Shown here: positions 5,010 to 21,139 of the stretch, one piece after another | Layout of the letters: every line of letters begins with the position of its first letter | Position numbering within the stretch: position 1 is the first letter of the stretch | The notes under the pieces: model-generated | The model's database searches: none | Told to the model about the DNA's origin: nothing | What the model saw: only the letters and a program-made list of their open reading frames with translations | From: Parcubacteria group bacterium | Lineage (GTDB): Bacteria; Patescibacteriota; Minisyncoccia; Phycocordibacterales; Zambryskibacteraceae | Length of the DNA: 50,503 nt | Direction of reading: 5' to 3' | Assembly: GCA_028286465.1 (NCBI GenBank) | Contig: JAQBRN010000020.1 | Span: 1-50,503, forward strand | Translations under genes and position numbers: made by a program

Positions 5010-5015
5010 AGAACC

Positions 5016-5696
5016 ATGCCAAAGACATCGACACAGAAGTTCTACAAACCCTCTATTACGGCCGATGTGGTCGTTTTCACCATCGAAGATAGCTTGCTGA
5101 AGGTTCTGACGGTGAAGCGCGCGGACGAGCCATTTAAAGGCACTCGGGCTTTGCCTGGAGGCTTCATCCTGCCCGGAAGCGACTCGATGGGCACGGCGAG
5201 AAGAATCCTTAAGGAAAAGGCGGGGCTCGAAGGCATCTATATGGAACAGCTCTACACCTTCGACGACCCGAAGCGCGATCCCCGAGGATCGGTCGTCTCC
5301 GTCGCCCACTTCGCTCTCGTACACCGGGATGCTATCTCCCTCGAAACCTCCTCGCATACCCAGGACCCGACCTTCACGCCGCTTAAGCACACCGGCACGC
5401 TCGCCTTCGACCACAAAAAGATCATCGAGTACGCCTATGAGCGCTTGCGAGGCAGGCTCGAATACACGAATATCGCCCAGTCGCTCCTGCCAAAGGAATT
5501 CACCTTCAGCGAACTTCAGAATGTCTATGAAACGATCTTCTCGAAGAAGCTCGACAAAAGGAACTTCAGAAAAAAGATCGAACGCCTCGGCCTCATCAAG
5601 GCCACGAAGAAGAAGATCAAGCGCGGACGCCAGCGCCCGGCCCTCCTCTACACCTTCGCTTCCGGCAAAGCCGAAAGCTTCAAGAATCCATTTTAA
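5016..5696 (+). CDS. nrtR: NrtR-like transcriptional regulator (Nudix domain + C-terminal winged-helix)
   Basis: 226 aa. The Nudix-fold N-terminus has a degenerate Nudix box (GGFILPGSDSMGTARRILKEKAGL, catalytic Glu positions lost). The C-terminal part (FDHKKIIEYAYERLRGRLEYTNIAQSLLPKEFTFSELQNVYETIF...KRNFRKKI) matches the NrtR wHTH pattern. NAD-salvage genes and palindromic boxes lie nearby. Confidence 0.75.
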   Translation: MPKTSTQKFYKPSITADVVVFTIEDSLLKVLTVKRADEPFKGTRALPGGFILPGSDSMGTARRILKEKAGLEGIYMEQLYTFDDPKRDPRGSVVSVAHFALVHRDAISLETSSHTQDPTFTPLKHTGTLAFDHKKIIEYAYERLRGRLEYTNIAQSLLPKEFTFSELQNVYETIFSKKLDKRNFRKKIERLGLIKATKKKIKRGRQRPALLYTFASGKAESFKNPF

Positions 5697-7485: not shown

Positions 7486-8362
7486 GATCTTCGTCCTCTT
7501 CGTGAAGGTGTTCAATATGGATGACGGCCATCGACACGTCGTCGACGGGCTTCGAGCTTTTGCGTTCGTAATTCTTTAGTGCGCGGATCATCCGCCTCTT
7601 GGCGAATTCTCCGGCGAAATTCTTGAACGACATGAGTTCGACGACGGCATCGATCCATTCGACGCCCTCGATCTGAGCTGCACCGTCCGAGAAAACCGCC
7701 ACGGACTCGAGCGTTTCGATTTCTTCGTTCGTGATCTCTTCGAAAATTCCAAGGAGTCCGTCGCGAAGATTGAATTCGACGATCCTACTCTCACCTACCT
7801 TCCCGAGTGTGTCGATGAAGACATCCGTTCGGGACAAGCGCATGGCAGACAAATCTCCGCCATGAGTCTTCACGAATTCTTCGAGATCGAGACCGGTGTA
7901 GGCCGGGTAGAAGGGCGTATTGTCCGCCCATTCGTAGTGCGAGGCAACCAAGCTCCCGTCCGTAAATTTCTTCGCGACGACGCCGTCGCCTTCCACATGC
8001 ACGAACCCTCCCGTTTCGGAAAGATAGGCGTACACGCAAGTCGCAAGCATGTCGGAGGACGAGAGACCGAGAAGCATCCGCGCATCGTGAAGAAGTTCTT
8101 TCTTCCGATCTTGTATGGCAACGGACATATCGAGAAGGCCTTCTCGAGGATTCTCCGCAACAGACTTCATCGCTCCGAGGAGCGAAAGGGCCTGAATGCG
8201 CGAGCCCACATCGGTGTGCCGGCCCGTCGAGCAGCCGTCCGAAACGACTGCGACGGCCGATCTCTCGTTCCCTCCCGAAAGCGCGTAATCCTGGCAGGGC
8301 AAGCCGTGCGCGTAATGCGCGCTTCCGATCTGGAAGTAATGATCCGCGTGAAGATTCCTCAT
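7448..8362 (-). CDS. PP2C-family protein phosphatase (PP2C_2 type)
   Basis: The conserved start MRNLHADHYFQIGSAHYAHGLPCQDYA...AVVSDGCSTGRHTDVGSR has its ATG at 8362, preceded by GGAGGAG. The longer track ORF (to 8539) would overlap the vWA gene by 125 nt. Confidence 0.8.
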   Translation of the reverse strand: MRNLHADHYFQIGSAHYAHGLPCQDYALSGGNERSAVAVVSDGCSTGRHTDVGSRIQALSLLGAMKSVAENPREGLLDMSVAIQDRKKELLHDARMLLGLSSSDMLATCVYAYLSETGGFVHVEGDGVVAKKFTDGSLVASHYEWADNTPFYPAYTGLDLEEFVKTHGGDLSAMRLSRTDVFIDTLGKVGESRIVEFNLRDGLLGIFEEITNEEIETLESVAVFSDGAAQIEGVEWIDAVVELMSFKNFAGEFAKRRMIRALKNYERKSSKPVDDVSMAVIHIEHLHEEDEDHVGTDIAGQLEG

Positions 8363-8414
8363 ACTCCTCCAAAGAAAAAGGAATGGCGACCTGCCATTCC
8401 TGTGTGAGAACTTC

Positions 8415-9167
8415 TTAGATGGTAGCCGCGATGTTCTGGCTCGGCCCGCCCGTCCCGAGAGACTGCGACTGGCTCGAGACGGATTGGGAAACGAACCCCG
8501 CGAGCTTGGCGAGCTTCGACTTGGTGGCATCACCGGCATCGATGTACTTCATGCCGGCTTCGGTCTCGAGCTTCGCGAGTTCGGTAGCGCAGAACTTGGT
8601 GTTCACGCCGACGGCGATAGCGATGAGCGATTCGATCTCTTCGCCCTTCGTCCCGCGTTCGATCTCCTTCTTGATCATCGTTGTCGTTGCGGACGACACG
8701 TTGTCGCCGCCATCGGTGATGACGATGACGATACCGTTCGCCAGGAAATCCTGGTCCATGAGCTGCTTGCCGTAAGCAAGCGTGGCGCCGACTGCCGAGA
8801 AACAGGCATCGTAGAGAGGCGTGAGTCCGTCAGGAACGATGTCCGGATACGAACTCGGATCGATATCTCCGAGCGGCTTGAAGCCGTGGATCTCGTCGAT
8901 CCCGTTCGGCAGGGCCGAATTGAAGAAGATAACCCTGACGAGAAGGTTCATCGACCGCGGCGACTTCTTACAGGAGTCAACGGCGGTAATGAGACAATCT
9001 CTCAGTTCCTTATCGAACCCCATGACGGACCCGGTCGTATCGACCGCGATGGTCACGAGCGTGTACTCCGTCGCGCCGAGCTCTCCGATCTTCGTGCCCG
9101 AGAACTTGAAGGCTTGCAGGCCTCGCACGGTTCCCGTTTGCATCGTCGCGTCCTTGAGGCGCGGCAT
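8415..9167 (-). CDS. von Willebrand factor A (vWA) domain protein, TerY-like
   Basis: 250 aa. It has a MIDAS-like VDTTGSV, then GLTPLYDA and IVIVITDGGDN. The SD AAGGAGA lies 5 nt upstream of the ATG. Confidence 0.8.
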   Translation of the reverse strand: MPRLKDATMQTGTVRGLQAFKFSGTKIGELGATEYTLVTIAVDTTGSVMGFDKELRDCLITAVDSCKKSPRSMNLLVRVIFFNSALPNGIDEIHGFKPLGDIDPSSYPDIVPDGLTPLYDACFSAVGATLAYGKQLMDQDFLANGIVIVITDGGDNVSSATTTMIKKEIERGTKGEEIESLIAIAVGVNTKFCATELAKLETEAGMKYIDAGDATKSKLAKLAGFVSQSVSSQSQSLGTGGPSQNIAATI

Positions 9168-9200
9168 GGTGTCTCCTTGTAAGAGGTGAGACTTCCTCGC

Positions 9201-10073
9201 TTACGTGAGGAAGTCCGTGGAAGTGATGAGCGTCATGCCGAGCTTCTGCATGTCCTTCTGCCACGCGTCCGCAATGGCCGGGAAATCCGGTCCGTTGGGA
9301 ACGGCGCCGACAGGGCTCATGCAATCGGTGATGAGCGCGAACTTATTCAGGTGCTCCGATCCGATGTTCTTGGCGATCTGATTCATCGTCGTCAAGAGAC
9401 AGTGGCTCGATGCTTCGCCGAGTGCGCCGATGATGTCGGCTTCGGCAAGGCTTTCGAGCACCGAGGTGTTGAGCTGCGTGCTCGGATCGTCCGGATCGGG
9501 AACTTCGGCCATCAGTGCGCCGAAATGTTCGGTGTGCGGATTCGATCCCTTGGTCACGTAGTCGACCGAGGCGAATTCCTTCTCCGACCAGCGCTGAAGC
9601 GCATCGTTGAGATCGTCCTGGACATTGTGTCCCCAGGTACCGATCTCGCAGTGATTCGTCCAGATCATGAGCGGATACAAACCGCCGGCTTCGAGCGCCT
9701 TCGCGTAGGCCAGTGCACGCGCACGCAGGCCAGGATGGCGCGGCGTCCAGATGCCGGCTTCGATATCGCTCACGCTGATGATGGTGAACGGAGCAGGCTG
9801 CTTGCCCTTCGCGTTCATCCAGTAGCCAGGGCGTTCGATGCCGATCCGGCGGTGGCTGTCGAGGGTGACCTTGATGTCATCGAGCTTGTGCCCGATGCGA
9901 TCGATCATTTTCGCGGCCCGCTTCATGTCGGAAACAGCGCCCTTGACGGGCAGCGCCGCAGTGCGGACGCGGCTCGTGCCGAGCGTTTCGACGAGCGGAG
10001 TACCATCGTCGTTCCCCATGAAATCGTTCTGGGGGTCGATGATAAGGAGGTGAACCTTGAGTCCTTTCGACAT
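9201..10073 (-). CDS. pncA: Nicotinamidase / cysteine hydrolase (long form), paralogue 1
   Basis: Isochorismatase-fold catalytic elements: IIDPQNDF (Asp), VTKG (Lys), EASSHC (Cys). The nicotinamidase-type motif IWTNHCEIGTWG (WPxHC-like) is present. The SD is AAGAGGA. Confidence 0.7.
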   Translation of the reverse strand: MSKGLKVHLLIIDPQNDFMGNDDGTPLVETLGTSRVRTAALPVKGAVSDMKRAAKMIDRIGHKLDDIKVTLDSHRRIGIERPGYWMNAKGKQPAPFTIISVSDIEAGIWTPRHPGLRARALAYAKALEAGGLYPLMIWTNHCEIGTWGHNVQDDLNDALQRWSEKEFASVDYVTKGSNPHTEHFGALMAEVPDPDDPSTQLNTSVLESLAEADIIGALGEASSHCLLTTMNQIAKNIGSEHLNKFALITDCMSPVGAVPNGPDFPAIADAWQKDMQKLGMTLITSTDFLT

Positions 10074-10141
10074 AGAGTCCTCTTAAGGGTAATGGGAACT
10101 GCGGGAAACTTCGGGTTCTTTCTATTCTGTTCTCAATGTAC

Positions 10142-10162
10142 TTAGTGTTCTAGTGACACTAT
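10142..10162. promoter_or_regulatory. Candidate NrtR operator, box 1 (TTAGTGT-tctagtg-ACACTAt)
   Basis: 21-bp palindrome with one mismatch. It overlaps the -10 (TATAGT, minus strand, 10158-10163) of the pncA-1 promoter. Confidence 0.65.
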
Positions 10163-10187
10163 ATACCCATGACCTATTTAGTGTCAA
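10158..10187 (-). promoter_or_regulatory. pncA-1 promoter, TTGACA-N18-TATAGT
   Basis: The minus-strand TTGACA (plus-strand coordinates 10182-10187) lies inside box 2. TATAGT (10158-10163) overlaps box 1. Confidence 0.5.
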
Positions 10188-10198
10188 ATCAACACTAA
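10178..10198. promoter_or_regulatory. Candidate NrtR operator, box 2 (TTAGTGT-caaatca-ACACTAA)
   Basis: Perfect 7+7 palindrome containing the -35 of the pncA-1 promoter. It lies 36 bp centre-to-centre from box 1. Confidence 0.65.
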
Positions 10199-10224
10199 GT
10201 ATCTGTGGATAACTTTTGATATAT

Positions 10225-10246
10225 AAAAACCGCATCGAAATGCGGT
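10225..10246 (-). terminator. Terminator of pncA-2
   Basis: Stem ACCGCAT (10229-10235) / ATGCGGT (10240-10246) with loop CGAA and a minus-strand T-run. It follows the stop codon directly. Confidence 0.7.
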
Positions 10247-10249
10247 GTA

Positions 10250-11110
10250 TTAACTCTTGTTGATTCTCCACTCGACCGATGTCGTGATGGTAGCGCCTAG
10301 ATCCTTCATTTTCCCGAACCAATCCCTAGTGAGCGCCGGGAAATCCGGGCCGTCGGGAACCGCAGGAACAGGGCTCATGCAGTCCGCAAGCATGGTGATG
10401 CGCTCGATCATCAGCGGATTTGCGTCCTTGATCTGCTCCACGGTCTCTCGGACACAATGGCTCGATGCCTCCCCTGCCACAATGACCTCGTCGGCCTCGA
10501 TGACCGCTTCGAATGCTGCTTCATTGAACATCGTGCTCGGATCTTCGGGATCCGGAACTTCCGCAGCGAAAGCGCCGAAATGCTCACTGAAGAGATTCGC
10601 ACCCTTGCTGATGTAGCTGATCGGACGAAGCGTCTTCTCAGACCAGCGCCCGACAGCGCGCCTTACGGCATGGTGGATGTTCGACCCCCATTCGCCGATA
10701 AGGCAATGCTCCGGCCAGATGGTGTGGCGCTTGCCCGCTGCATTGAGTTTCCGAAGATATCTCATTGCCCGAGCATGGAAGTGCGGATCCTTCGTCATCC
10801 AAGTGCCCTGGATCATCTCGTCGGCCGTGATCGAGTCGTACGGCTTCGGTTCTTCACCGTTTCGATTGTGCCAGAAGATCGGATGCGCGATGTGTATCTT
10901 GTTGTGGCCGTCGAGAGAGATCGTGATAGCGTCGATGTCGTCGCTATTCGCGCCGATATACTCCGCCAGGCGAAGCATGTCGTCATGCGAACCGGGTACC
11001 GGCAGAGCAGGCTTCTGCAGCCTGCCCGTGAGCGGATCGAGCGGCTGGTACGGAAGCGGCAGGTCGCAGAAGTGGTCCTGCGGATCAACGATCAAGAGAT
11101 GCGTGCGCAC
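10250..11110 (-). CDS. pncA: Nicotinamidase / cysteine hydrolase (long form), paralogue 2
   Basis: 286 aa, a clear paralogue of 9201-10073 (LIVDPQDHF, ISKG, EASSHC, IWPEHCLIGEWG). It uses a GTG start at 11110. Confidence 0.7.
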   Translation of the reverse strand: MRTHLLIVDPQDHFCDLPLPYQPLDPLTGRLQKPALPVPGSHDDMLRLAEYIGANSDDIDAITISLDGHNKIHIAHPIFWHNRNGEEPKPYDSITADEMIQGTWMTKDPHFHARAMRYLRKLNAAGKRHTIWPEHCLIGEWGSNIHHAVRRAVGRWSEKTLRPISYISKGANLFSEHFGAFAAEVPDPEDPSTMFNEAAFEAVIEADEVIVAGEASSHCVRETVEQIKDANPLMIERITMLADCMSPVPAVPDGPDFPALTRDWFGKMKDLGATITTSVEWRINKS

Positions 11111-11150
11111 ATGAGCCCTTTGCTAGTGTGGAAGGACGAATTCTTTCTGG

Positions 11151-11179
11151 TTTATAACAATATAAATACAAAATGTCAA
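11151..11179 (-). promoter_or_regulatory. pncA-2 promoter, TTGACA-N17-TATAAA
   Basis: Minus-strand TTGACA at plus-strand coordinates 11174-11179 and TATAAA at 11151-11156. It lies just downstream of the pncB terminator. No full palindromic box is present. Confidence 0.45.
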
Positions 11180-11182
11180 TAT

Positions 11183-11206
11183 AAAAACCCGGAGCATTGC
11201 TCCGGG
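11183..11206 (-). terminator. Terminator of pncB
   Basis: Stem CCCGGAGC (11188-11195) / GCTCCGGG (11199-11206) with loop ATT and a 5-nt T-run on the minus strand. Confidence 0.75.
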
Positions 11207-11210
11207 TGAT

Positions 11211-12503
11211 TCAAACATAGACTCGGCTCGACGAGAGGCCTTCGACTCCGAAGATCTTCTTGTAGCGCTCGATCTCCTCTTTCGGGCCGGTGACCTTGTC
11301 GAGGTTATCGGAAAGTTTTATACAAGGAAAATCATTTGCCCTGACGACTTTGCAGACCATCGAGAACGGACGCAGAAGCAGATTCGAACTCGTTCCGCGG
11401 AAGTCGTTCGTGAACAAGGATCCCCAGCCATCTGAGAGATTGATCTCGTCTCCGAGCTCCCGATCGATGCGCTTCATCGACTCGACATCGAGCCCGTCCG
11501 ACGGGATCATGAGCTTCGATTTCGGATCGATCTCCCACTTTCTGAGCCAGTTTATGTACATACGACCGCGAGAAACCGGATCGTTCGAATCCTGGCGCAT
11601 GCCCCTCCACGCTGCTACACATTCGGGTGCATTGTCGAGGAACTGCTTGGTGCCGTACGTGTCCGGAAGGAAGATCCTGAGCGACTGGTTATATGTCTTC
11701 TCCCACAACCGGAGCGGCTCATACTGCGCGTCGACCTTGTCCTTATCCGGCGCGAGCGCCACGAGTACCATGGGCATCTCGTGAGCATTCGTGCCGATCG
11801 GCGAGAGATCGTGACGGAACGCCATCCATGTGTTCGACGTTCCGATGAACTGCTCGCCCATCATGGACTTGGCAAGCCCGATGGCCCATTCCTGCCAGAG
11901 GAAGCTGTGACGCCTGCGCTGTCCGAAATCGGAGAACGTGATCCGCGGGAACTTTTGCAATTCCTCGAGCTTCCGCGACAGCTTGTCCATCGCTCGCGCG
12001 TAGACAAGCTCGAGCTCGTGCTTCGACATCGTCTTCATGACGGCGCGATAGTAGAGCTCCGAGATGACGGCGAGGGCGATCGTTTCCCACATCGAGACTT
12101 CCGCCCACTTTCCCGTGAAGGACAGTTCGATCTCCTTGCCCTTGCGCACGAGGCGATACGGCGGGAGCTTCAACGTCCTGAGAAAATCGAGATACCCCTC
12201 CTTGAACATGTAGTCCTGATGGAGGTTCATCCCGCGCAAGTAGTAGATATCCGTCCGTGAGAAGGTTAAGTCTCTCACGTAGTCGAGACTTTCTCTCAGC
12301 TGGTCTTCAGGAATGATCTCTCCGACCGGAATGTCCTTGTCTCGAATGATGAGCTTGAAGGTGACTTCCACATCGGGATAGTATTGCCAGATGACCTGGC
12401 CCATCGTGAACTTGTAGAAATCGATGTCCATGAGCGACCTGACGGGCGCACTGAACTCGGCCGCATTCATCCGGGCGACATCGGCGAAGTGAGTATTGCT
12501 CAC
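11211..12503 (-). CDS. pncB: Nicotinate phosphoribosyltransferase
   Basis: 430 aa. SLMDIDFYKFTMGQVIWQYYPDVEVTF matches the PncB N-terminal signature. It uses a GTG start preceded by AGGAGGA. Confidence 0.9.
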   Translation of the reverse strand: MSNTHFADVARMNAAEFSAPVRSLMDIDFYKFTMGQVIWQYYPDVEVTFKLIIRDKDIPVGEIIPEDQLRESLDYVRDLTFSRTDIYYLRGMNLHQDYMFKEGYLDFLRTLKLPPYRLVRKGKEIELSFTGKWAEVSMWETIALAVISELYYRAVMKTMSKHELELVYARAMDKLSRKLEELQKFPRITFSDFGQRRRHSFLWQEWAIGLAKSMMGEQFIGTSNTWMAFRHDLSPIGTNAHEMPMVLVALAPDKDKVDAQYEPLRLWEKTYNQSLRIFLPDTYGTKQFLDNAPECVAAWRGMRQDSNDPVSRGRMYINWLRKWEIDPKSKLMIPSDGLDVESMKRIDRELGDEINLSDGWGSLFTNDFRGTSSNLLLRPFSMVCKVVRANDFPCIKLSDNLDKVTGPKEEIERYKKIFGVEGLSSSRVYV

Positions 12504-12553
12504 AGGTCCTCCTGTGCTTCAAGTGAAAGAACACTAGACTTTTACCGGGCGAT

Positions 12554-12581
12554 ATAGTACCATTCCCAGTAAGATTGTCAA
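12554..12581 (-). promoter_or_regulatory. pncB promoter, TTGACA-N16-TACTAT
   Basis: Minus-strand TTGACA at 12576-12581 and TACTAT at 12554-12559. Confidence 0.5.
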
Positions 12582-12597
12582 TACAGGCGTACCCGCT

Positions 12598-12626
12598 TTG
12601 ACAACCCCATACATCTAGACTACTAT
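12598..12626 (+). promoter_or_regulatory. nadE promoter, TTGACA-N17-TACTAT
   Basis: TTGACA at 12598-12603 and TACTAT at 12621-12626. It is arranged back-to-back with the pncB promoter. Confidence 0.5.
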
Positions 12627-12628
12627 AC

Positions 12629-12649
12629 TTAGTGTAGTATAGACACTAA
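12629..12649. promoter_or_regulatory. Candidate NrtR operator, box 3 (TTAGTGT-agtatag-ACACTAA)
   Basis: Perfect palindrome starting 3 nt after the nadE -10. It covers the expected transcription start and ends 4 nt before the nadE ATG. Confidence 0.65.
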
Positions 12650-12653
12650 ATAA

Positions 12654-14582
12654 ATGCAAGACTTCGGCTTCATCCGCGCTTCGGCCATTACTCCCGATCT
12701 TCGTATCGGAGATATTTCATATAATGCAAAAGAGATCATAAAGACCGGGAAGGCGGCAAGCGCGGACGGAGCGTCCTTCATCGTCTTCCCCGAACTCTCC
12801 ATCACGGGGTATTCGATCGGCGATCTTTTTCATCAGGAACTCGTTTGGCAGAAGACGCTCAGTGCACTCGAGGACATACGGAAAGCCCTCGCTTCCTCCC
12901 CTGCTCTTGTCGTCGTGGGCGCCCCGCTTATCATCGGAGGCTTCCATGCCAATTGCGCCGTCGTTCTCTACAGGGGCCGCATCCTTGCCGTCATACCGAA
13001 GACCTACCTGCCAGGCTACAAGGAATTCTATGAGAAGCGCTGGTTCGCATCGGCGAAGGACATTACTGCGACAGAAATAGAGCTCGGAGGACAAATCGTC
13101 CCCGTCGGCACGGATATTCTCATTAAAGCCGCAGACAACATCATTTTCGGCATCGAGATCTGCGAAGACCTCTGGGGTCCGCTTCCTCCGAGTTCCTTTC
13201 AGGCCGTAGCCGGAGCGACCATCATCGGCAATCTCTCCGCATCGAACGAGCTCGTCGGGAAGTCCGCCTACAGGCGCGACCTTGTGAAGAACCAATCGGC
13301 TCGCTGCATCGCGGGCTACGTATACGCATCATCCGGCGTCCACGAATCCTCGACCGACCTCGTCTTCTCTGGGCACTCGCTCATAGCCGAGAACGGCACG
13401 CTGCTTAAGGAGAGCGAGCTTTTCCAGGATAAGTCGCAGATCATCTCCGCCGACATCGATGTCTCTCACTGCGTCGAAGATCGCATCCGTACGACAAGCT
13501 TCGCGGACTCTGCCAAGGAAATTCTTCATCGCCCGTTCCGAACCATCACTCTCGACGACTTCGTGCAAAAAGAAACGAAGGAACTTCTAAGGCCTCTGGC
13601 GAGAAATCCTTTCCTGCCGACAGACGATGCCAAGAAGCACCAGGTAGCCGAAGAAGTCTTTAACATCCAAGTGGCAGGGCTTGTTCAACGTTTGAGAGCA
13701 ACGAATATTAAAACTATCATCATCGGCCTTTCGGGCGGACTCGATTCGACCCTTGCCCTTCTTGTGGCTTTGAATGCAGCCAAGAAGCTCAACCTTCCAT
13801 ATAAAAACATCCGAGCCTTCACCATGCCGGGCTTCGGCACGACCAAGCGCACCAAGTCGAATGCGCATATCCTCGCAGAAGCTTCGAATATTTCCATAGA
13901 AGAAATAGACATCACCGAGGCAAGCAGGCAGCACTTCAAGGATATCCATCACGACGAGCGTATCGAAGATCCCACTTTCGAGAATGTCCAGGCTCGCTAC
14001 AGAACCATGATCCTTATGGACAAGGCCAATCAGTTGAACGGTCTCGTCTTGGGCACCGGCGACCTTTCGGAGATCGCTCTCGGCTGGGCCACCTTCAATG
14101 GTGACCACATCTCTCATTACAACGTGAATGTCGGCGTGCCGAAGACCCTTATCCGTCATGTGGTCTCGTGGGTTGCAGATACTTCAGACAATGCGACGCT
14201 TTCGAAAACTCTTAAGAGCATTCTCGACACCCCGATCTCTCCGGAGCTGAAGCGCGCAAAAGCTGGCAAGATCACCCAAAAAACCGAAGACCTTATCGGC
14301 CCGTATGAACTCCATGACTTCTTCCTCTATCACTTTATCCGCTGGGGTTCGAGGCCGCAGAAGATCCTCTTTCTCGCCGAAATTGCATATAAAGGCACGT
14401 ATTCGAAAGCGGAGATCAAAAAGTGGCTGACGCTCTTTATAAAAAGATTCTTCGGCAATCAATGGAAGCGCTCGGTAGCATCCGACGGTCCGAAGATCGG
14501 TTCCGTAGCCCTTTCCCCCCGCGGCGACTGGCGCATGCCTTCGGACGCAAGCGTCTCTCTCTGGCTCAAAGAACTCGACTAA
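12654..14582 (+). CDS. nadE: Glutamine-dependent NAD+ synthetase (CN-hydrolase domain + NAD synthase domain)
   Basis: 642 aa. The N-terminal nitrilase-type domain has FPELSITGY and EICEDLW. The C-terminal ATP-PPase domain has the motif GLSGGLDST. Confidence 0.9.
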   Translation: MQDFGFIRASAITPDLRIGDISYNAKEIIKTGKAASADGASFIVFPELSITGYSIGDLFHQELVWQKTLSALEDIRKALASSPALVVVGAPLIIGGFHANCAVVLYRGRILAVIPKTYLPGYKEFYEKRWFASAKDITATEIELGGQIVPVGTDILIKAADNIIFGIEICEDLWGPLPPSSFQAVAGATIIGNLSASNELVGKSAYRRDLVKNQSARCIAGYVYASSGVHESSTDLVFSGHSLIAENGTLLKESELFQDKSQIISADIDVSHCVEDRIRTTSFADSAKEILHRPFRTITLDDFVQKETKELLRPLARNPFLPTDDAKKHQVAEEVFNIQVAGLVQRLRATNIKTIIIGLSGGLDSTLALLVALNAAKKLNLPYKNIRAFTMPGFGTTKRTKSNAHILAEASNISIEEIDITEASRQHFKDIHHDERIEDPTFENVQARYRTMILMDKANQLNGLVLGTGDLSEIALGWATFNGDHISHYNVNVGVPKTLIRHVVSWVADTSDNATLSKTLKSILDTPISPELKRAKAGKITQKTEDLIGPYELHDFFLYHFIRWGSRPQKILFLAEIAYKGTYSKAEIKKWLTLFIKRFFGNQWKRSVASDGPKIGSVALSPRGDWRMPSDASVSLWLKELD

Positions 14583-14589
14583 ACTAATA

Positions 14590-14618
14590 TTGACTTTATA
14601 CTGAACTTGTAATATAAT
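14590..14618 (+). promoter_or_regulatory. Near-consensus promoter TTGACT-N17-TATAAT of the NDT-like gene
   Basis: TTGACT at 14590-14595 and TATAAT at 14613-14618. GGAGG at 14648-14652 precedes the ATG at 14657. Confidence 0.6.
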
Positions 14619-14630
14619 ACAAACAAGTTC
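14603..14630. repeat. Inverted repeat GAACTTGT-N12-ACAAGTTC bracketing the -10 box
   Basis: 8-bp perfect arms at 14603-14610 and 14623-14630. It is a candidate operator and is distinct from the TTAGTGT box. Confidence 0.4.
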
Positions 14631-14656
14631 TTTCCCAACCTCATCACGGAGGTCTC

Positions 14657-15187
14657 ATGCAGGAAACAGACAAGAAGAGACCCGGTATCGTTACCGTCGG
14701 CCTCTTCGGCACCTGTGGAGGCAGTAAGTGGCGCCATTCCTTCAAGGAGCGCTACAGCATGGACGGAATTCACTTCTTTGACCCACAGGTCGAGAACTGG
14801 GATCCGTCGATGGCCGCGATCGAAGCAGATCATCTGGCAGAGGACGAGATCATTCTCTTCCCTGTCACAAGCGAGACCTATGGCATCGGATCATTGGCCG
14901 AAACCGGCTTCTCGGTCCTACAGGCCATTCGGCTCGATGATCGGCGCGACTTCGTCATCATGATCGACATGCACCTTGACGAAGCGCTGCACGAAAACTC
15001 TCTCGCCGCAAAGGAGTCGCTGCGGGCACGAGCGTTGGTGCGCAAGCACCTTGAAAAGCTTCGTCTCTCGAACCTCTTCCTTGTCGACAACCTCGACGAG
15101 ATGCTCGCCGTGAGTCTGGACCTCTGCAAGGCTGCGAAGTTGAAGCAGGGGCTGCTCCAGTTCAACCCTCATCGCAGAGGCGTCTGA
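14657..15187 (+). CDS. Nucleoside 2-deoxyribosyltransferase-like protein (NDT-like, paralogue A)
   Basis: 176 aa. VTVGLFGTCGGSKWR ... DEIILFPVTSETYGIGSLAETGF matches the Rossmann-like NDT-like family pattern (family call from memory). Confidence 0.55.
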   Translation: MQETDKKRPGIVTVGLFGTCGGSKWRHSFKERYSMDGIHFFDPQVENWDPSMAAIEADHLAEDEIILFPVTSETYGIGSLAETGFSVLQAIRLDDRRDFVIMIDMHLDEALHENSLAAKESLRARALVRKHLEKLRLSNLFLVDNLDEMLAVSLDLCKAAKLKQGLLQFNPHRRGV

Positions 15188-15201
15188 GATTTCTTCAGAC
15201 A

Positions 15202-15234
15202 ATGCCGGACATCACAAGATGTCCGGCATTTTTC
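15202..15234 (+). terminator. Terminator of NDT-like gene A
   Basis: 11-bp stem ATGCCGGACAT (15202-15212) / ATGTCCGGCAT (15219-15229) followed by TTTT. Confidence 0.8.
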
Positions 15235-15240
15235 ATATCG

Positions 15241-15269
15241 TTGACATTAGATAATTCAAATAGTATAAG
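15241..15269 (+). promoter_or_regulatory. Promoter TTGACA-N17-TATAAG
   Basis: TTGACA at 15241-15246 and TATAAG at 15264-15269, immediately after the terminator. Confidence 0.55.
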
Positions 15270-15309
15270 TCAGGATAGATTGTTCACTTATTCATCCGCG
15301 GAGTGGTTT

Positions 15310-15783
15310 ATGTCCAGAGAAGTCGACCGCAAGTCAGAAGAAATCATGAAGCTTTTGGAGAAGGCGCCAATCTTCTCTCGGTTTGGTTTCGTACACATCC
15401 GCCCCGCACTTGAGGGCGAGCGTGTTATTACCAAACTAGCGAATGGTGCAGAAGAAACCGAAAACATTGCACAGAAAAATGAGTGGGTAGTAAGAAACCC
15501 CTCAGGTGAGGAGTGGATCATCGATACAGACACCTTCCGTTTCTATGAGCCCACCGAGGTTCCCGAAAAGTTCATTTCGAAAGGTTTCTGCCGAGCGGTC
15601 AAAAACCCTTTTGGCGAACCGATCGAGATCATGGCTTCTTGGGGATCGCGTCAGATCGGCGACGAGAACTGCATGATCGTTGATGCATGCAACGAAGATG
15701 CATCTTGGACTCACGGAGAACCCAAGATCATCGATGGAGATGCTTTCCAAGCCACGTTCACGCCGCTAACTACGAATAAGTAA
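15310..15783 (+). CDS. Hypothetical protein (157 aa)
   Basis: The track ORF starts at 15202 inside the upstream terminator. The first ATG after the promoter is at 15310 (MSREVDRKSEEIMKLLEK...). I recognise no family. Confidence 0.55.
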   Translation: MSREVDRKSEEIMKLLEKAPIFSRFGFVHIRPALEGERVITKLANGAEETENIAQKNEWVVRNPSGEEWIIDTDTFRFYEPTEVPEKFISKGFCRAVKNPFGEPIEIMASWGSRQIGDENCMIVDACNEDASWTHGEPKIIDGDAFQATFTPLTTNK

Positions 15784-15808
15784 AAGACTGGAATTTTTCC
15801 CAGTCTTT
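15783..15808. terminator. Bidirectional terminator between convergent orphans
   Basis: Stem AAAGACTGG (15783-15791) / CCAGTCTTT (15800-15808) with T-rich flanks in both directions. Confidence 0.65.
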
Positions 15809-16738
15809 TTATTTAGTTGGTGGCGTAAGGTTCGCCTCGATCTCGGGTTTCTTGCTCTTCGCATACTGCTCGTGGAAGCCCTTGGCCACGTCTTCCATGA
15901 TCACTCGGCCTTCAAGCCTTTTCACCGCCTCGGCGCATTCGGCGAAGGTCTGGGGTATATCCTTCTCGCCGAGAAGCGAGAGAGCTGTTTGAATATTGGT
16001 TAAAACATTGTGCTGGTAGCGATGCTCGCTTCTCACCGAGGTGTAATTCTCAAGAATGTATTCATAGTCATGAAGCGTCAATGTCGGGCGCTTTTTATAA
16101 TACGGATCCGGAACCTCGGGCATCTTGTTGTACCACAGGTCGCCCCAGACGACATTGTTCTGCTTGAACTTCCGTAAGTAGGCGAAGACCTTCTCCGCGT
16201 CCGGATGTCCGCCAAGCCCGCCGTCGCTATTCTCGAAAACGATCGACTTCCTGAGTTTCAGGAGAAAGTTGATGGACGGCGCTTCGGGATACTTTTCCTT
16301 CAAAAGATCATAAAGGATGGTGTACGACAGGCTCTTCTCGCGAAGCCCCGGGATCCTGTAGTACGTGAGCATTTCCGTATCGTTCGAAGCCACATACTCG
16401 TTGTAGTTCACGATCTCGGTGAAGTATTCCTTGGTAAGCCTGCGAGGATTCAGCGGATTGTCGAAAGCCATATGCACCATATCGTGCATAAAGAACATGT
16501 CGCTCACCGAGTCGCTCGCGTAATGATCGCGCATCAAGACGAAGTTGAAATACTGGGTGAAGTGCGCATACTCATATTCTTCGCTTGCCTTGAAGAAGAT
16601 CGGCGACCGGTGGTCGATGACGAAGTCCACGAGGCCTTTATAGAAGGGATGGGTCTTGAACTCTTCCGTCTTGATGATCTCCGTATTGATAAAATGCTCG
16701 TACTCGGCAAGGGTTGGGAAGAAGGTGAGGTCTCTCAT
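15809..16738 (-). CDS. Hypothetical protein (309 aa)
   Basis: Long ORF with good coding appearance. I recognise no family. It contains FFMHDMVHMAF, a possible H-x3-H metal site. Confidence 0.6.
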   Translation of the reverse strand: MRDLTFFPTLAEYEHFINTEIIKTEEFKTHPFYKGLVDFVIDHRSPIFFKASEEYEYAHFTQYFNFVLMRDHYASDSVSDMFFMHDMVHMAFDNPLNPRRLTKEYFTEIVNYNEYVASNDTEMLTYYRIPGLREKSLSYTILYDLLKEKYPEAPSINFLLKLRKSIVFENSDGGLGGHPDAEKVFAYLRKFKQNNVVWGDLWYNKMPEVPDPYYKKRPTLTLHDYEYILENYTSVRSEHRYQHNVLTNIQTALSLLGEKDIPQTFAECAEAVKRLEGRVIMEDVAKGFHEQYAKSKKPEIEANLTPPTK

Positions 16739-16780
16739 GCCTCAATCCTACTCAAGAAACTTGGAGCGGGCAACGTATAG

Positions 16781-16806
16781 AAAAACCCCGCAGCATAGCT
16801 GCGGGG
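16781..16806 (-). terminator. Terminator of the Mqo-family gene
   Basis: Stem CCCCGCAGC (16786-16794) / GCTGCGGGG (16798-16806) with loop ATA and a minus-strand T-run. Confidence 0.8.
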
Positions 16807-16814
16807 CGTTGGAA

Positions 16815-18152
16815 CTATCGGGCGTGAACAACGCCTCCCAGTTCGGCTTCGAATCTCTCGGAGTCGAACCGGTAGTGATTGCCGAGAAAACCGGCAACCC
16901 GCTCGGCATCCCGCTTGGCATTCGCGAGACACACCGAGGCGCCCGGTGACGGCGTGGTGTTGAAGATGCAATTGTCGCCGACGATGGTCTTGTCGCCCAT
17001 TTCGAGATTGTCGGTCTTTTTCTCGAGATTGACGATCTGAGGACGAATACCGCCAACGCCCTTTCTGAGCTTGAGGTCGCGATACCGAATGGTCGGCACG
17101 ATCACTCGAGCTTGCCGCAGAAACATCAGCGGACCGAGCACGGGCACATCGTAGAGCGCGTTCCGAACAACATACCCGACAAGATGATTCTTGAAGAGAA
17201 TGCTGAGAAGAACAATGAGGCCTCTGATCGAGACGATCGGGAGCTTCATGAAGTCCCAGAACGTCTTGTACTGATGCCGCTCCATGAGAGGCAAAGGCTT
17301 CGTCGTCGGGCCGAACCGCGTGTCGTCCTGATTGAGGACATCCGGATCGCCGTGAATGGCCGCGAACGGCATCCCCTCGATCTGAACGCGGTAGACCTTC
17401 CCGCGCAGGAACTTCCCTGCGGAGAAAAAACTGCCGGCGACCGGCAAGATGCCGTATTCCAGGCCGTAGCCGAGCTGCTGCGCGAAGAGAAGGCTGTATG
17501 CGCCCGAGGCGAATACCACCACCTTCGCGCGGAACTCGCCGCGATCCGTTTCGAGCACGAATTCCTTTCCGACCCTGCGGACCTTTTTCAGGTCCGTATC
17601 GAAGAAGAGGTTGGTGCTGTCATCCTCGTCGAGCGAACGGCTGACGAATGTTTCCGCGAGCCGCTGGTAGTTCACCGCGTAACCTTCGTTCGTCACGAGG
17701 GCACAGACGGGCTCGTTCGGATCACGGCCGAGCATGACCATCGGTTCGAGCTCTCGAAGATCCGATGCACTGGCGAGCCAGAGATCCGGATAGTCGTTCT
17801 TGAACTCGACGAACCGGTGATGAAGCAGTGTGACCTCGTCCTCGCCGACACCAAGCACCATGCGTGTGGTCTTCTTGAAGAGATCCGCGACTTCCGCCTG
17901 CTCGACGAAATTCCGAAGATACGTCGCCGCCACCTTCACTTCGCGAGCATGCTCGAGACCGTAATTCGTCTCGGTACTGCCGTCATGCGAGGTCTGAGCG
18001 TTGTTCATCGGATTCGAATTCACCTGTGCGACATGTCCACACTTCTCGATGAGCGCCATACGGCCCACGTTCGAGAAGCGACTGAGCGCGTAGAGAAGCG
18101 CCGTACCGGTCACTCCGCCGCCCACGATGATGACATCGTAGTCTCTGTGCAT
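16815..18152 (-). CDS. FAD-dependent oxidoreductase of the malate:quinone oxidoreductase (Mqo) family
   Basis: 445 aa. It has the dinucleotide fold DVIIVGGGVTGTA. NNAQTSHDGSTETNY parallels the Mqo motif NNAGTGHSALCELNY, and the C-terminal SPGASVCL parallels ASPGAST. Confidence 0.6.
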   Translation of the reverse strand: MHRDYDVIIVGGGVTGTALLYALSRFSNVGRMALIEKCGHVAQVNSNPMNNAQTSHDGSTETNYGLEHAREVKVAATYLRNFVEQAEVADLFKKTTRMVLGVGEDEVTLLHHRFVEFKNDYPDLWLASASDLRELEPMVMLGRDPNEPVCALVTNEGYAVNYQRLAETFVSRSLDEDDSTNLFFDTDLKKVRRVGKEFVLETDRGEFRAKVVVFASGAYSLLFAQQLGYGLEYGILPVAGSFFSAGKFLRGKVYRVQIEGMPFAAIHGDPDVLNQDDTRFGPTTKPLPLMERHQYKTFWDFMKLPIVSIRGLIVLLSILFKNHLVGYVVRNALYDVPVLGPLMFLRQARVIVPTIRYRDLKLRKGVGGIRPQIVNLEKKTDNLEMGDKTIVGDNCIFNTTPSPGASVCLANAKRDAERVAGFLGNHYRFDSERFEAELGGVVHAR

Positions 18153-18194
18153 TTGTTCCTTAGATTTCAGTGTGAAAGATCAGAAACTTGCGGT

Positions 18195-18223
18195 ATTCTA
18201 TCATTAAAACTACTTAAAGTCAA
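18195..18223 (-). promoter_or_regulatory. Promoter TTGACT-N17-TAGAAT of the Mqo-family gene
   Basis: Minus-strand TTGACT at 18218-18223 (overlapping the stop of the Nudix gene) and TAGAAT at 18195-18200. The SD is AAGGA. Confidence 0.55.
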
Positions 18224-18819
18224 GTAAGCTCATGAGGAGCGGGATCCTTCAAAATAGTCCTCAGCTCAGCCTCCCTTTCCTGTATAAGACAATCTTCGGC
18301 GAAGCGCTGGCGATACTTGAAGCCGAACTTCCTGACCGTGGCAATATAGTCGTCGATGGACATTCTGACTGGCTCGCTCGTCTCTCCTGCATCGAGGTGC
18401 TGATCTTTGGTCTCTCCGGTGAATCCTGCAGCGACGACCGTATACGAAATCCATTCCGCAGAGGGATTCGGCTGTTCCATATGAACGAGATAGAAGTTCG
18501 TGAAGACCATCCCCGTCTCCTCTTCGAGTTCCCTCTTCGCTCCGGCGAGTATGTCCTCTCCGTCTTCGAGCATGCCAGCCACGATATTGAGTGCGGGCGC
18601 ATCCCAGTGCGGCTGCTGTTCTCTTACCGCCACGATCTCGTCTCCGATGATCGGCAGGACGATGACGTTGTCCGTCCTTCGCACCGTTTCGAAGGTGTGC
18701 ATCTCTCCGTTGAATTGTTTCTGCTTCCATTGATGGACGTCGAAACGGACGCCGTCGAAGACTTTCTCCGCGGTGTCGGAATGGAAGGTAACACCCGGAG
18801 GCAATGGTCGTTTGTTCAT
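18220..18819 (-). CDS. Nudix hydrolase with an intact catalytic box (ADP-ribose pyrophosphatase-like)
   Basis: 199 aa. The canonical Nudix box GMLEDGEDILAGAKRELEEETGM is present. The start lies 3 nt after the ARH stop. Confidence 0.8.
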   Translation of the reverse strand: MNKRPLPPGVTFHSDTAEKVFDGVRFDVHQWKQKQFNGEMHTFETVRRTDNVIVLPIIGDEIVAVREQQPHWDAPALNIVAGMLEDGEDILAGAKRELEEETGMVFTNFYLVHMEQPNPSAEWISYTVVAAGFTGETKDQHLDAGETSEPVRMSIDDYIATVRKFGFKYRQRFAEDCLIQEREAELRTILKDPAPHELT

Positions 18820-18822
18820 GGT

Positions 18823-19821
18823 TTAATAGATGTCTATAAGTTTCTCTGCGAGTTCGAGAGGCTCTTCGAAGGCCTTGCTGAAACTCTTCCATTCTACAGG
18901 AATGGATTCGAGTCCGCAGTTGGCTCCGATAAGGGCTCCCGCGATGGAAGCGTTGGTATCGGTATCGCCTCCGGCATTCACGGCTTCGAGAATGCCCGTT
19001 TTGAAATCCTTCGGGTGTCTCAGAAACGTGCCTATGGCGAAAGCAGCCGCATCGAGCGCGCTGAAGCCCGACCCAACAGCCCGAGAAAGGCTCTCTGCAT
19101 TATCTAAATGATCCGTTATCTTTTCGAGTCTTTCCGAGACCGATTCATATTCAGACGGTTCTTCTGTTTCGAGCTCTTTGATCGTCTGTATGATGATTTC
19201 AAGATATGCCGCTCCGGAACTCGCATCCATGCCGCCTTCGCTTTCAAGTATTCTTTGAAGAAACAGGGCAACTGCATATGCCGCAATACTTGCCCGAATA
19301 TCAGGGTGCGTCATGGAGCCGAGCGCCTTCACATCCTTCCAGAGTTCTTCACCGCTGCCTCGCCTTAAGGAGTTATTGACGCCAAGCGGCGAGACCTTCA
19401 TGACAATGCCGCTTCCGCAGCCCTTGCCCGGTACTCCCGGAGGAAGCGGATCTTGACCGGGTATTCTCTTACCATCTCTGATCGCTTCTATGGCGATCTC
19501 CGTCGTTTTGCCCCAGCCGAATTTGCTCTTGCTGTATGAGCGGACATGCTCCTCAGCGCAGTCGACGATGTCGAATGCTCCCTTCGTGCGCACAAGCGAA
19601 CGCAAGACGACTGCCGTGAGCTGCCAATCGTCCGTCGTGTCGCCGGCCTTCAAGTCCCCGAGCCAGTCGGTACGATTGATCGGATCGATAAAGCCCGTAA
19701 GCCCCTTCCCAGCCGTATCCTTCAAAATCTCTTCATGACTCATCGTCTCGACCGGCATGCCCAAAGCATCACCGATAGCGATTCCGAGGAAACAACCTTG
19801 AATTCTATTGCTTGTTGTCAT
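18823..19821 (-). CDS. ADP-ribosylglycohydrolase family protein
   Basis: GCFLGIAIGDALGMPVE and GGDTDTNASIAGALIGA are hallmark ARH motifs. The preferred start is MTTSNRIQ (ATG at 19821), which overlaps the upstream stop as ATGA. Confidence 0.85.
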   Translation of the reverse strand: MTTSNRIQGCFLGIAIGDALGMPVETMSHEEILKDTAGKGLTGFIDPINRTDWLGDLKAGDTTDDWQLTAVVLRSLVRTKGAFDIVDCAEEHVRSYSKSKFGWGKTTEIAIEAIRDGKRIPGQDPLPPGVPGKGCGSGIVMKVSPLGVNNSLRRGSGEELWKDVKALGSMTHPDIRASIAAYAVALFLQRILESEGGMDASSGAAYLEIIIQTIKELETEEPSEYESVSERLEKITDHLDNAESLSRAVGSGFSALDAAAFAIGTFLRHPKDFKTGILEAVNAGGDTDTNASIAGALIGANCGLESIPVEWKSFSKAFEEPLELAEKLIDIY

Positions 19822-20306
19822 GGTGTATGAATAAGCTTCTCTTTGATACATCGCTCTACTGCCTTGATACATTCCGGAAGCAACTCAAATATCGGAATCC
19901 CATACTGCTTCGCAATGATATCGACATTGCCCTTGCGCCAGAAACCTTCCGGACAGCAAACAAACACCTTGCCGCTCGCGGCGAAGAGCCCGAGTTCGAG
20001 GAGGCTTATCGGCGACTTCGTCTTCGGATCGAAATAGAACAAAATGACATCCGCTTCTTTAAGTCCCCGCTGCTCCCATTCGACTTGTTCCTTAAATACA
20101 GGATTATGAATGCTTTGTTCGATACCGCTATCCCAGACCGGTCGGCGCGGATTCAGAAGCACGATGTCGTACGCTGAGAACTCCTCGGCAATACCATCTT
20201 GCCAGCGCTCAGCAGTATCCATCTCGATGCTTCCGGCAAGAAACACCTTAGGCTTGCTTGCTTCTCGTTCCGTATCAAATGCGTGTGGTGCGTGAATCAT
20301 CTGCAT
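19818..20306 (-). CDS. Nucleoside 2-deoxyribosyltransferase-like protein (NDT-like, paralogue B)
   Basis: 162 aa. KVFLAGSIEMDTAERW ... ADVILFYFDPKTKSPISLLELGLF follows the same family pattern as 14657-15187. The ATG directly abuts the palindromic box. Confidence 0.55.
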   Translation of the reverse strand: MQMIHAPHAFDTEREASKPKVFLAGSIEMDTAERWQDGIAEEFSAYDIVLLNPRRPVWDSGIEQSIHNPVFKEQVEWEQRGLKEADVILFYFDPKTKSPISLLELGLFAASGKVFVCCPEGFWRKGNVDIIAKQYGIPIFELLPECIKAVERCIKEKLIHTP

Positions 20307-20327
20307 ATAGTGTTATATATACACTAA
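20307..20327. promoter_or_regulatory. Candidate NrtR operator, box 4 (aTAGTGT-tatatat-ACACTAA)
   Basis: 21-bp palindrome with one mismatch. Its AT spacer provides the only -10-like element, implying a leaderless NDT-like/ARH/Nudix transcript. Confidence 0.6.
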
Positions 20328-20336
20328 CACAGCACG

Positions 20337-20360
20337 AAAAACCCCGCAACTTATGCGGGG
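20337..20360 (-). terminator. Terminator of the SPFH gene
   Basis: Stem CCCCGCA (20342-20348) / TGCGGGG (20354-20360) with a minus-strand T-run. Confidence 0.75.
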
Positions 20361-20386
20361 TTCTAACTTCACTCCTAGCTTTGGGA

Positions 20387-21139
20387 CTAATTCCCGAAAT
20401 CTCCCTTAATCATCTTCAATGCCTCGCTGACCGTCGTCATGAATTGCGCCGGGAAGATGATGGTGGAATTCTTCTCGACCGAGATCTCGGCCATGGTCTG
20501 AAGGGTACGGAGCTGGAGGGCTACAGGATGAGCGCTGATGATATCCGCCGCTTCCCCGAGCTTAACCGCAGCCTGGAACTCGCCTTCTGCGGCGACGATC
20601 TTCGCCCTTCTCTCGCGCTCGGCTTCGGCTTCCTTGGCCATGGCGCGCTGCATATTGTCGGGCAGGGTGATATCCTTGATCTCGACTGCCGTTACCTGGA
20701 CACCCCAGGGTTCAGTATGTGAGTCGATGACCGATTTGATCTGTTCATTGATGGCGACAGTTTCCGAAAGGAGCTGGTCGAGCTGGAATTGTCCGACGAC
20801 GTTTCTCACCGTGGTCTGACTGATCTGATTGACGGCGTCGTAGACGTTCTCTATGGCCACGACCGACTTCACCGCGTCCGTGATGTGGTAATAGGCGACG
20901 GCCGCAATGTCTATGGAAACATTGTCCTTGGTAATGATCTTTTGCGAAGGAATATTCATGGTCACCGTACGCAAGGCGACCTTCGTCATGCGCTCGAGAA
21001 GCGGAATGAGGAGGATGAGGCCCGGGCCGCGCACACCCTTGCACTTCCCGAGGAAGAAGATGACTCCCCTGTCGTACTCCTTGACGACACGAAGCGAGAG
21101 AAGCAGAAGAATAACGACAATAGCAATAAGGATATACAT
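20387..21139 (-). CDS. SPFH/band-7 (stomatin-like) membrane protein
   Basis: 250 aa with an N-terminal TM segment, then [15 protein letters not shown] ... [19 protein letters not shown] ... [14 protein letters not shown]. Confidence 0.85.

Follow-up and report, generated by a model that had tools for sequence, protein, structure and literature searches.

Repressors of the NrtR family have been described in Chloroflexi, Cytophaga, Cyanobacteria and gamma-proteobacteria (PMC2330246), and these regulons, together with Synechocystis Slr1690 and the structurally solved SoNrtR (PDB 3gz5/3gz6), are the systems with which we compare the locus studied here. The positions of their sites imply repression, and ADP-ribose weakens binding in electrophoretic mobility shift assays (EMSA) (Rodionov et al., 2008, PMC2330246); a model with a repressor and ADP-ribose as its anti-repressor is backed by EMSA in Synechocystis and Shewanella (PMC2330246) and in Mycobacterium smegmatis (PMC6800001). 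Our subject is a 50,503-nt stretch of DNA from a Parcubacteria group bacterium (contig JAQBRN010000020.1 of assembly GCA_028286465.1), hereafter the window, which carries four copies of a 21-bp palindrome (boxes 1 to 4) and a gene for a Nudix-related regulator, nrtR. Its sequence makes it very probable that the NrtR-family repressor which this gene encodes (5016-5696) uses the four palindromes as its operators, with genes of nicotinamide adenine dinucleotide (NAD) metabolism among the predicted targets.

Four palindromes and their conservation

An earlier reading of the sequence, the original prediction, had picked out four copies of TTAGTGT-N7-ACACTAA as an operator set. A search with this 21-bp query (TTAGTGTNNNNNNNACACTAA) throughout the 50.5-kb window, at up to two and up to three mismatches, returned them with the same coordinates and sequences, boxes 2 and 3 perfect and boxes 1 and 4 with one mismatch each (Table 1); the looser threshold added no further copy. 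Across 100 dinucleotide-preserving shuffles of the window, chance expectation was 0.04 copies at up to two mismatches and 0.39 at up to three, and none of the 100 gave four, so that the set lies beyond chance, as had been argued. A position-weight matrix scores the boxes at 23-30 bits and every other position below 8 bits, and a matrix built only from sites upstream of nrtR in relatives (consensus TTAGTGTaaaatttACACTAA) gives them 20.9-28.1 bits and finds nothing else in the window at or above 6 bits. The distribution of scores is cleanly bimodal, because the boxes lie at 21-30 bits and the rest of the window below 6 bits.

All four sites have the GT-N7-AC core within a 21-bp palindrome by which NrtR operators are defined (PMC2330246), a definition that the original prediction stated accurately. 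Relative to genes supported by homology the boxes are intergenic, as it also held; the only open reading frames (ORFs) that touch them, 9186-10145 and 20258-20722, both on the plus strand, are antisense to real genes. A tRNA was the sole match in an Rfam scan of the window, and therefore no riboswitch or RNA family accounts for the boxes.

Consensus scanning places boxes 1 and 2 on the promoter of pncA-1, a nicotinamidase-like gene, and box 3 on that of nadE. The pncA-1 promoter, on the minus strand, agrees with the consensus at 11 of 12 positions (TTGACA at 10187-10182, an 18-bp spacer, TATAGT at 10163-10158) and has its predicted start near 10151, within box 1, which bears out the proposal that the two boxes cover its -10 and -35. 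In an alignment of three pncA upstream regions, from the window and its two closest relatives (alignment A3), the footprint consists of both boxes with TTGACA and TATAGT. On the plus strand, the nadE promoter matches at 10 of 12 positions (TTGACA-17-TACTAT, 12598-12626, with the -10 at 12621-12626); box 3, as originally stated, covers the predicted start point, near 12633. Directly upstream of box 2 there is also a perfect DnaA-box consensus (TTATCCACA, 10204-10212, minus strand), found once in the window against 0.16 expected, whose place is kept in the two closest relatives (block CTTATCCACAG of alignment A3).

The motif is conserved together with the regulator. Scanning a genome collection with the NrtR protein yielded 80 loci at 41-56% identity (1.3 Mb in total; individual loci are labelled L004 and so on below) from Chloroflexota (Anaerolineales, Herpetosiphon), the candidate phyla radiation (CPR)/Patescibacteria, Bacteroidota and other groups. 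The core TAGTGT-N7-ACACTA occurs 13 times in this sequence, mostly 30-80 bp before nrtR, and in 54 of the 80 loci the matrix finds a site in the 200 bp before nrtR. This region holds 3.37 sites/kb versus 0.031/kb in the remaining DNA, an enrichment of about 100-fold, and, in ~675 kb of sequence around nadE homologues, some 72 more distant nadE loci without nrtR hold no site of at least 13 bits. The original prediction had named two observations that would speak against it, a motif common elsewhere and a motif unconserved at orthologous NAD genes; we find instead that it is rare away from nrtR and that boxes stand upstream of nrtR and of NAD genes in relatives.

The closest relatives, L081 (GCA_034680565.1) and L082 (JGI), whose pncA-like proteins show 73-76% identity to that of the window, share its gene order (pncB, pncA-like gene, 250-aa protein, PP2C, kinase-like gene), with nrtR convergent. 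In both, the pncA-like gene is preceded by a tandem pair, spaced 36 bp in L081 and 35 bp in L082, and nrtR by a site of its own; L081 has further boxes before pnuC and before pncB. Tandem boxes at pncA-like genes also occur in L169 (46 bp apart), L024 (47 bp), L009 and L013. In distant loci, boxes precede pncA-like genes, pncB, NAD kinase, NMNAT-like and Nudix genes, a His-phosphatase gene with one for an ADP-ribosylglycohydrolase (ARH), PP2C_2 genes and a kinase gene. Among metagenomic loci of the closest NadE homologues, a box lies 12-40 bp before nadE in L090, L091 and L096, and before nrtR-nadE in L089. L170, which has the four-gene module described below and no nrtR nearby, has no boxes.

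Of 92 unique sites in the relatives and the window, 12 contain the -35 hexamer TTGACA inside one operator arm (..TTGACAC..), among them box 2 of the window and, in L081, L082 and L169, the distal box, so an operator design with a built-in -35 is recurrent. We also considered that operator spacers systematically encode a -10, and dropped this claim on finding a weak enrichment (29% vs 20% in shuffled spacers).

The regulator, its proposed action and competing explanations

The Nudix and winged-helix regulator of the original prediction is well supported. Its winged helix matches PF21906 NrtR_WHD (4.9e-23, 81.5 bits vs a cutoff of 27), its N-terminal Nudix fold matches PF00293 (4.1e-9, residues 17-124), and over its full length the protein aligns with two solved structures, BtAraR of Bacteroides thetaiotaomicron (3.9e-35) and SoNrtR of Shewanella oneidensis (3.2e-31). 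As in non-catalytic NrtRs, the Nudix box is degenerate, with three of its four glutamates gone (S55, I64, K68).

In the crystal of BtAraR with the operator AAGTGT-N7-ACACC, residues K179, R180, N181, K184, D178 and R205 ‘define the GTGT motif’ (PMC4666351). The window NrtR has D180, K181, R182, N183, K186 and R207 at the aligned positions, with K181, R182, N183 and K186 in a KRNxxK recognition helix, and this agreement provides a structural reason for the GTGT/ACAC arms. ADP-ribose is contacted in SoNrtR by Y10, F15, R41, N43, K76 and R98, and in BtAraR the equivalents of K76 and R98 are replaced by Leu and Gly, closing the nucleotide pocket (PMC4666351). Four of the six contacts are kept in the window protein (F15 as F9, R41 as R35, K76 as K68 and R98 as R90); the protein's DNA-reading head therefore resembles that of BtAraR, its nucleotide pocket that of SoNrtR.

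From these features we infer how NrtR binds, in which direction it regulates, which effector it senses and how far each transcription unit reaches, as follows. Each of the two winged helices of an NrtR dimer would engage one half-site, GTGT or ACAC, the two being separated by 7 bp. The operon that starts with pncA-1 would take two dimers, one on the -35 (box 2) and one on the -10 and start point (box 1); at nadE a single dimer would sit on the transcription start, and at an operon encoding a nucleoside 2-deoxyribosyltransferase-like (NDT-like) protein, an ARH and a Nudix hydrolase a single dimer would lie right against the start codon. Bound NrtR would block RNA polymerase at each target. As NAD is consumed, ADP-ribose or a close derivative would accumulate and bind the catalytically dead Nudix domain, and effector-bound NrtR would release DNA, leading to joint induction of nicotinamide salvage (PncA), the last step of NAD synthesis (NadE) and the removal and processing of ADP-ribose (ARH, Nudix).

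The promoter of nrtR itself contains, between its -35-like and -10 (TATAGT, 5004-5009) elements, a degenerate palindrome, ACGGCGT-N7-ACGCTAT, with the core GCGT-N7-ACGC. In alignment A2 it falls where L081 and L082 have their nrtR operators, and it is probably a weak or decayed autoregulatory site, scoring 1.4 bits with the matrix trained on relatives; at this score we set it aside as a fifth operator, treating it as a probable relic. Autoregulation of nrtR seems to be weakened or lost in this genome. The gene looks leaderless, with 6 nt between the -10 hexamer and its ATG, and in Anaerolineales relatives (L004-L030, around position 9988) the nrtR ATG falls inside the operator spacer (TAAGTGTATAATGAACACTAA). 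Divergent from nrtR, on the minus strand at 3251-5034, are genes for an OmpR-type response regulator (4255-5034) and a histidine kinase. The longest ORF of the former overlaps the start of nrtR; its receiver domain starts at residue 38, and therefore its true start is probably near 4929.

Several observations weigh against the proposal that this NrtR acts at the four boxes in the manner outlined. The nrtR gene has no good box of its own, whereas most relatives have one, and it lies 4.4-15 kb away from its targets; a second NrtR paralogue may be encoded outside the window, and some genomes have two (PMC2330246). Consensus scanning found no recognisable sigma-70 promoter at box 4, where A/T-rich hexamers are present without the canonical A2 and T6; the original prediction was right that a palindrome precedes this operon, but its suggestion that the box supplies the only -10 remains a guess. 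The protein does not pass the NCBIfam equivalog NF050029 for the ADP-ribose-responsive repressor (161.7 bits vs a cutoff of 400), which places it in the family but outside that narrow orthologous group. Finally, SoNrtR N43 corresponds to Asp (D37) and Y10 is not alignable, and therefore the effector could differ from ADP-ribose.

This last point leads to the alternative that survives best, which leaves the DNA side unchanged: the ligand sensed by the regulator might be NAD, like that of NdnR, or a pentose, like those of AraR and XylR, or else something that the NDT-like or ARH enzyme produces. In keeping with this, the best match in the PDB is the arabinose-responsive BtAraR, and family members that respond to arabinose or NAD, and not to ADP-ribose, are known (PMC4666351). 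We nonetheless regard another effector as unlikely, given that the conserved ADP-ribose contacts include the two lost in BtAraR, that no sugar-catabolism genes lie near any box, and that the regulon has enzymes which release (ARH) and degrade (Nudix) ADP-ribose.

It could also be supposed that the boxes are bound by another factor, be it the OmpR-type regulator or a paralogue of NrtR with its gene outside the window, and that the presence of nrtR nearby is coincidence; the absence of a good box at nrtR, which adjoins none of the four, would fit. This seems very improbable, since the motif accompanies nrtR in 54 of the 80 loci and across several phyla, the window NrtR keeps the exact GTGT-reading residues, and in L081 and L082, where the same nrtR is found at the equivalent place, it does carry a box. 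Moreover, OmpR-type regulators bind direct repeats rather than 21-bp palindromes. As for the idea that the palindromes work not as operators but as RNA or DNA hairpins (transcript stabilisers, attenuators or elements like repetitive extragenic palindromes), it is scarcely credible: although each box allows a 7-bp stem and boxes 1 and 2 fold better than shuffles (z -2.7 and -3.2), folding yields little energy (-5.8 to -8.8 kcal/mol) and for boxes 3 and 4 is no better than in shuffles (z -1.5 and -0.7), the GTGT/ACAC arms are conserved in relatives and not exchanged for compensatory pairs, with a freely varying loop, the predicted transcription start falls downstream of box 2 and of most of box 1, and no Rfam family matches.

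Predicted target operons and neighbouring genes

Table 1. Predicted operators, genes and other features discussed in the text, in window coordinates.
Feature	Position	Strand	Basis or remark
Degenerate palindrome	4986-5006		Alignment A2, placement
nrtR, Nudix-related transcriptional regulator, 226 aa	5016-5696	+	PF21906, NUDIX, structure matches
Ser/Thr-kinase-like protein, 579 aa, C-terminal all-beta propeller-like domain	5746-7485	-	AlphaFold2, Foldseek
PP2C_2-family phosphatase	7448-8362	-	PF13672 1.7e-15; likely start ATG 8362 after GGAGG
Hairpin + T-run between vWA stop and PP2C ribosome-binding site	8379-8401	-	Position kept in relatives
vWA-like (TerY-like) protein, 250 aa, second gene of boxes 1/2 operon	8415-9167	-	MIDAS-like residues
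pncA-1, divergent nicotinamidase-like cysteine hydrolase, 290 aa, first gene of boxes 1/2 operon	9201-10073	-	Family profile
Box 1, predicted promoter-proximal NrtR operator of pncA-like operon	10142-10162		Covers 5/6 bases of -10 and predicted start
Box 2, predicted distal NrtR operator	10178-10198		One arm contains -35 TTGACA; centre 36 bp from box 1 centre
pncB, nicotinate phosphoribosyltransferase	11211-12503	-	NF003704 388.1 bits; divergent from nadE
Box 3, predicted NrtR operator of nadE	12629-12649		Starts 3 bp after -10, covers predicted start, ends 4 nt before ATG
nadE, glutamine-dependent NAD+ synthase, predicted box 3 target	12654-14582	+	NF002730 867.7 bits vs cutoff 473
Nudix hydrolase, start overlapping ARH stop	18220-18819	-	Best matches ADP-compound/ADP-ribose diphosphatases
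ADP-ribosylglycohydrolase (DraG/ARH family), longest-ORF coordinates	18823-19872	-	PF03747 2.4e-57
NDT-like protein, first gene after box 4	19818-20306	-	PF15891
Box 4, predicted NrtR operator abutting ATG (20306) of NDT-like/ARH/Nudix operon	20307-20327		Palindrome, matrix

The label pncA-1, taken from the original prediction, holds at the level of profiles, not of Pfam, where the gene has no match and the gathering score of PF00857 is not reached (E = 0.2 for its paralogue at 10250-11110). A profile of its 18-member family (A1) matches only nicotinamidases in the PDB (2h0r at 2.6e-9, 3pl1, 1ilw and 2wt9). Invariant D13, D72, H74, H141, K175 and C225 are in register with the DxQNDF, DWH, WPVHC, DKG and YCV motifs of yeast Pnc1, whose aligned residues we take to be the catalytic Asp-Lys-Cys triad and the Asp/His/His metal site. 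Public sources name homologues in this family nicotinamidase, and a member directly follows nrtR in 25 of the 80 loci. The paralogue pncA-2 (10250-11110, minus strand), 41% identical to pncA-1, has a terminator at 10246-10229 and a strong promoter of its own (TTGACA-17-TATAAA, about 11178-11150) with no NrtR box; judging from this arrangement, pncA-1 appears to be regulated and pncA-2 constitutive.

Next to nadE, pncB has its own promoter (TTGACA-16-TACTAT, 12581-12554) and terminator (11207-11187). The -35 of pncB lies ~48 bp from box 3, and direct repression is therefore doubtful; whether box 3 controls pncB is uncertain. Orthologues of pncB with boxes of their own are present in L081, L009, L013 and L038. 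Beyond nadE come a promoter-like site (11/12 consensus, 14590-14618), another NDT-like gene (14657-15187; PF15891, weak) and a gene with a PGDYG domain (15202-15783), and this cluster ends in a bidirectional terminator-like hairpin at 15782-15809.

Box 4 lies 10-15 nt downstream of the terminator of a Band-7 gene and fills most of the ~30 nt between that hairpin with its T-run and the ATG of the NDT-like gene, from which a leaderless transcript would be geometrically possible. The ARH product also matches TIGR02662 at 4.4e-23, below the cutoff, and the gene that follows the Nudix gene, for a flavin adenine dinucleotide (FAD) oxidoreductase, has its own promoter-like site and terminator. Among the NDT-like homologues examined, an NrtR-like box was found before one orthologue, in the Pacebacteria genome L087. 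The contexts of these homologues are mixed, with NrdR in Anaerolineae, methyltransferase/PDDEXK genes in Herpetosiphon and pnuC in Pacebacteria, and the NDT/ARH/Nudix trio is not conserved among their loci. The only RNA gene detected in the window is tRNA-Gln (CTG), at 39733-39806 on the minus strand.

The assignment of boxes 1 and 2 to pncA-1 is supported by the promoter, but the original prediction missed that the predicted unit extends into the vWA-like, PP2C and kinase genes. The vWA-like protein has invariant residues resembling a metal ion-dependent adhesion site (MIDAS), namely D43-x-T-x-S47, T116 and D152; its homologue in L053 matches PF00092 VWA at 2.9e-6, and weak matches to vWA domains were found in the PDB, which together give the vWA assignment of 8415-9167 weak-to-moderate support. 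The last 38 nt of the PP2C gene are shared with the start of the kinase gene. An AlphaFold2 model of the kinase (predicted local distance difference test score, pLDDT, 87.5) has a Hanks-type kinase and an all-beta, propeller-like domain, with LRRK2, CaMKII and IRAK4 as top Foldseek matches; the kinase family has ~750 members, mostly in the CPR.

A hairpin stands at the vWA/PP2C junction in L081, L082 and L009 as well, with differing stem sequences, and is probably an intra-operon attenuator or partial terminator; it looks like a device for holding PP2C and kinase at a lower level. Between it and the PP2C gene there is no space for a promoter, and the simplest reading is a single operon from pncA-1 to the kinase with an internal attenuator. 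The four-gene module (5746-10073, minus strand) is kept in L009, L013, L024, L081, L082, L169, a JGI contig and L170, and is rearranged in L036 and L038, where NrtR boxes directly precede PP2C_2 genes. It occurs mostly in CPR/Patescibacteria, usually beside nrtR and behind tandem NrtR boxes; in L169, for example, it lies behind tandem boxes and adjoins nrtR. We propose tentatively, as a possibility to be taken seriously, that NrtR here and in many CPR/Patescibacteria also controls this nicotinamidase/vWA/PP2C/kinase operon and so couples protein phosphorylation to NAD consumption, which it would sense through ADP-ribose. Within the literature library searched we found no paper mentioning NrtR together with PP2C or vWA, and PADLOC made no defence-system assignment for the vWA/PP2C/kinase triad (just weak generic kinase matches) or for the NDT-like, ARH and Nudix genes.

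Comparison with known systems

The vWA/PP2C/kinase part of the operon recalls the TerY-P triad, which according to Anantharaman et al. (2012), as cited in PMC11090510, consists of a vWA protein, a PP2C and a Ser/Thr kinase. The window module likewise has vWA-like, PP2C and Hanks-type kinase genes in that order, in a tight conserved operon, but it matches no PADLOC TerY-P model, its kinase carries a C-terminal beta-propeller where that of TerY-P has a zinc ribbon or OB fold, it is joined to a nicotinamidase gene under NrtR boxes, and modules of this type occur mostly in CPR/Patescibacteria. Reportedly, Gao and colleagues attributed a defence role to the TerY-P triad in 2020. Because of this resemblance, the four-gene operon might, by analogy, respond to phage attack or to stress that depletes NAD. 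Of all the elements here, only the NrtR-linked nicotinamidase/vWA/PP2C/kinase operon may be new, and its recurrence behind tandem boxes suggests that minimal-genome bacteria relying on NAD salvage have an undescribed connection of Ser/Thr phospho-signalling with NAD turnover.

With BtAraR (PDB 5bs6/5dd4; PMC4666351), the best solved match, the window NrtR shares an identical D-K-R-N-x-R-K helix and the wing Arg. The crystallised BtAraR operator has the GTGT-N7-ACAC core of the window boxes, and BtAraR likewise uses tandem 21-bp sites. The two proteins differ at wing K204, which is Gln in the window, and above all in their pockets and targets: BtAraR senses L-arabinose, controls pentose use and has its pocket filled, whereas the window NrtR keeps the ADP-ribose Lys and Arg and is predicted to control NAD genes. 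It would thus seem that the GTGT-N7-ACAC reading head of BtAraR is reused with an ADP-ribose-type pocket in NrtRs across Chloroflexota, the CPR and Bacteroidota. MsNrtR of Mycobacterium smegmatis (PMC6800001) is also an NrtR repressor with a dead Nudix domain and has the release by ADP-ribose that we propose here; it differs in its 23-bp operator, GTTTTCGA-N7-TCGAAAAC, in its control of the de novo genes nadABC and in being an auto-repressor.

The sequence evidence supports the view that the window operator set defines an NrtR regulon of the same type as those of Rodionov et al. (2008). It has in common with them (PMC2330246) a regulator with a Nudix-like domain and a winged helix, a 21-bp palindrome with the GT-N7-AC core, sites overlapping promoters in the pncA, pncB and nadE group, tandem sites at some promoters, and predicted repression relieved by ADP-ribose; nrtR-linked ARH/DraG genes, too, had already been noted in Streptomyces (PMC2330246). 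The joint induction of NAD salvage and ADP-ribose clearance would be expected biology that leaves the understanding of NrtR unchanged, and the operator set offers a clean, testable regulon for an uncultured lineage. What sets the window apart is the low identity of its protein to SoNrtR, the extended arms TTAGTGT/ACACTAA, the lack of a good autoregulatory site, and two operons, NDT-like/ARH/Nudix and nicotinamidase-vWA-PP2C-kinase, neither of which appears in the portion of the 2008 regulon table (PMC2330246) available for comparison.

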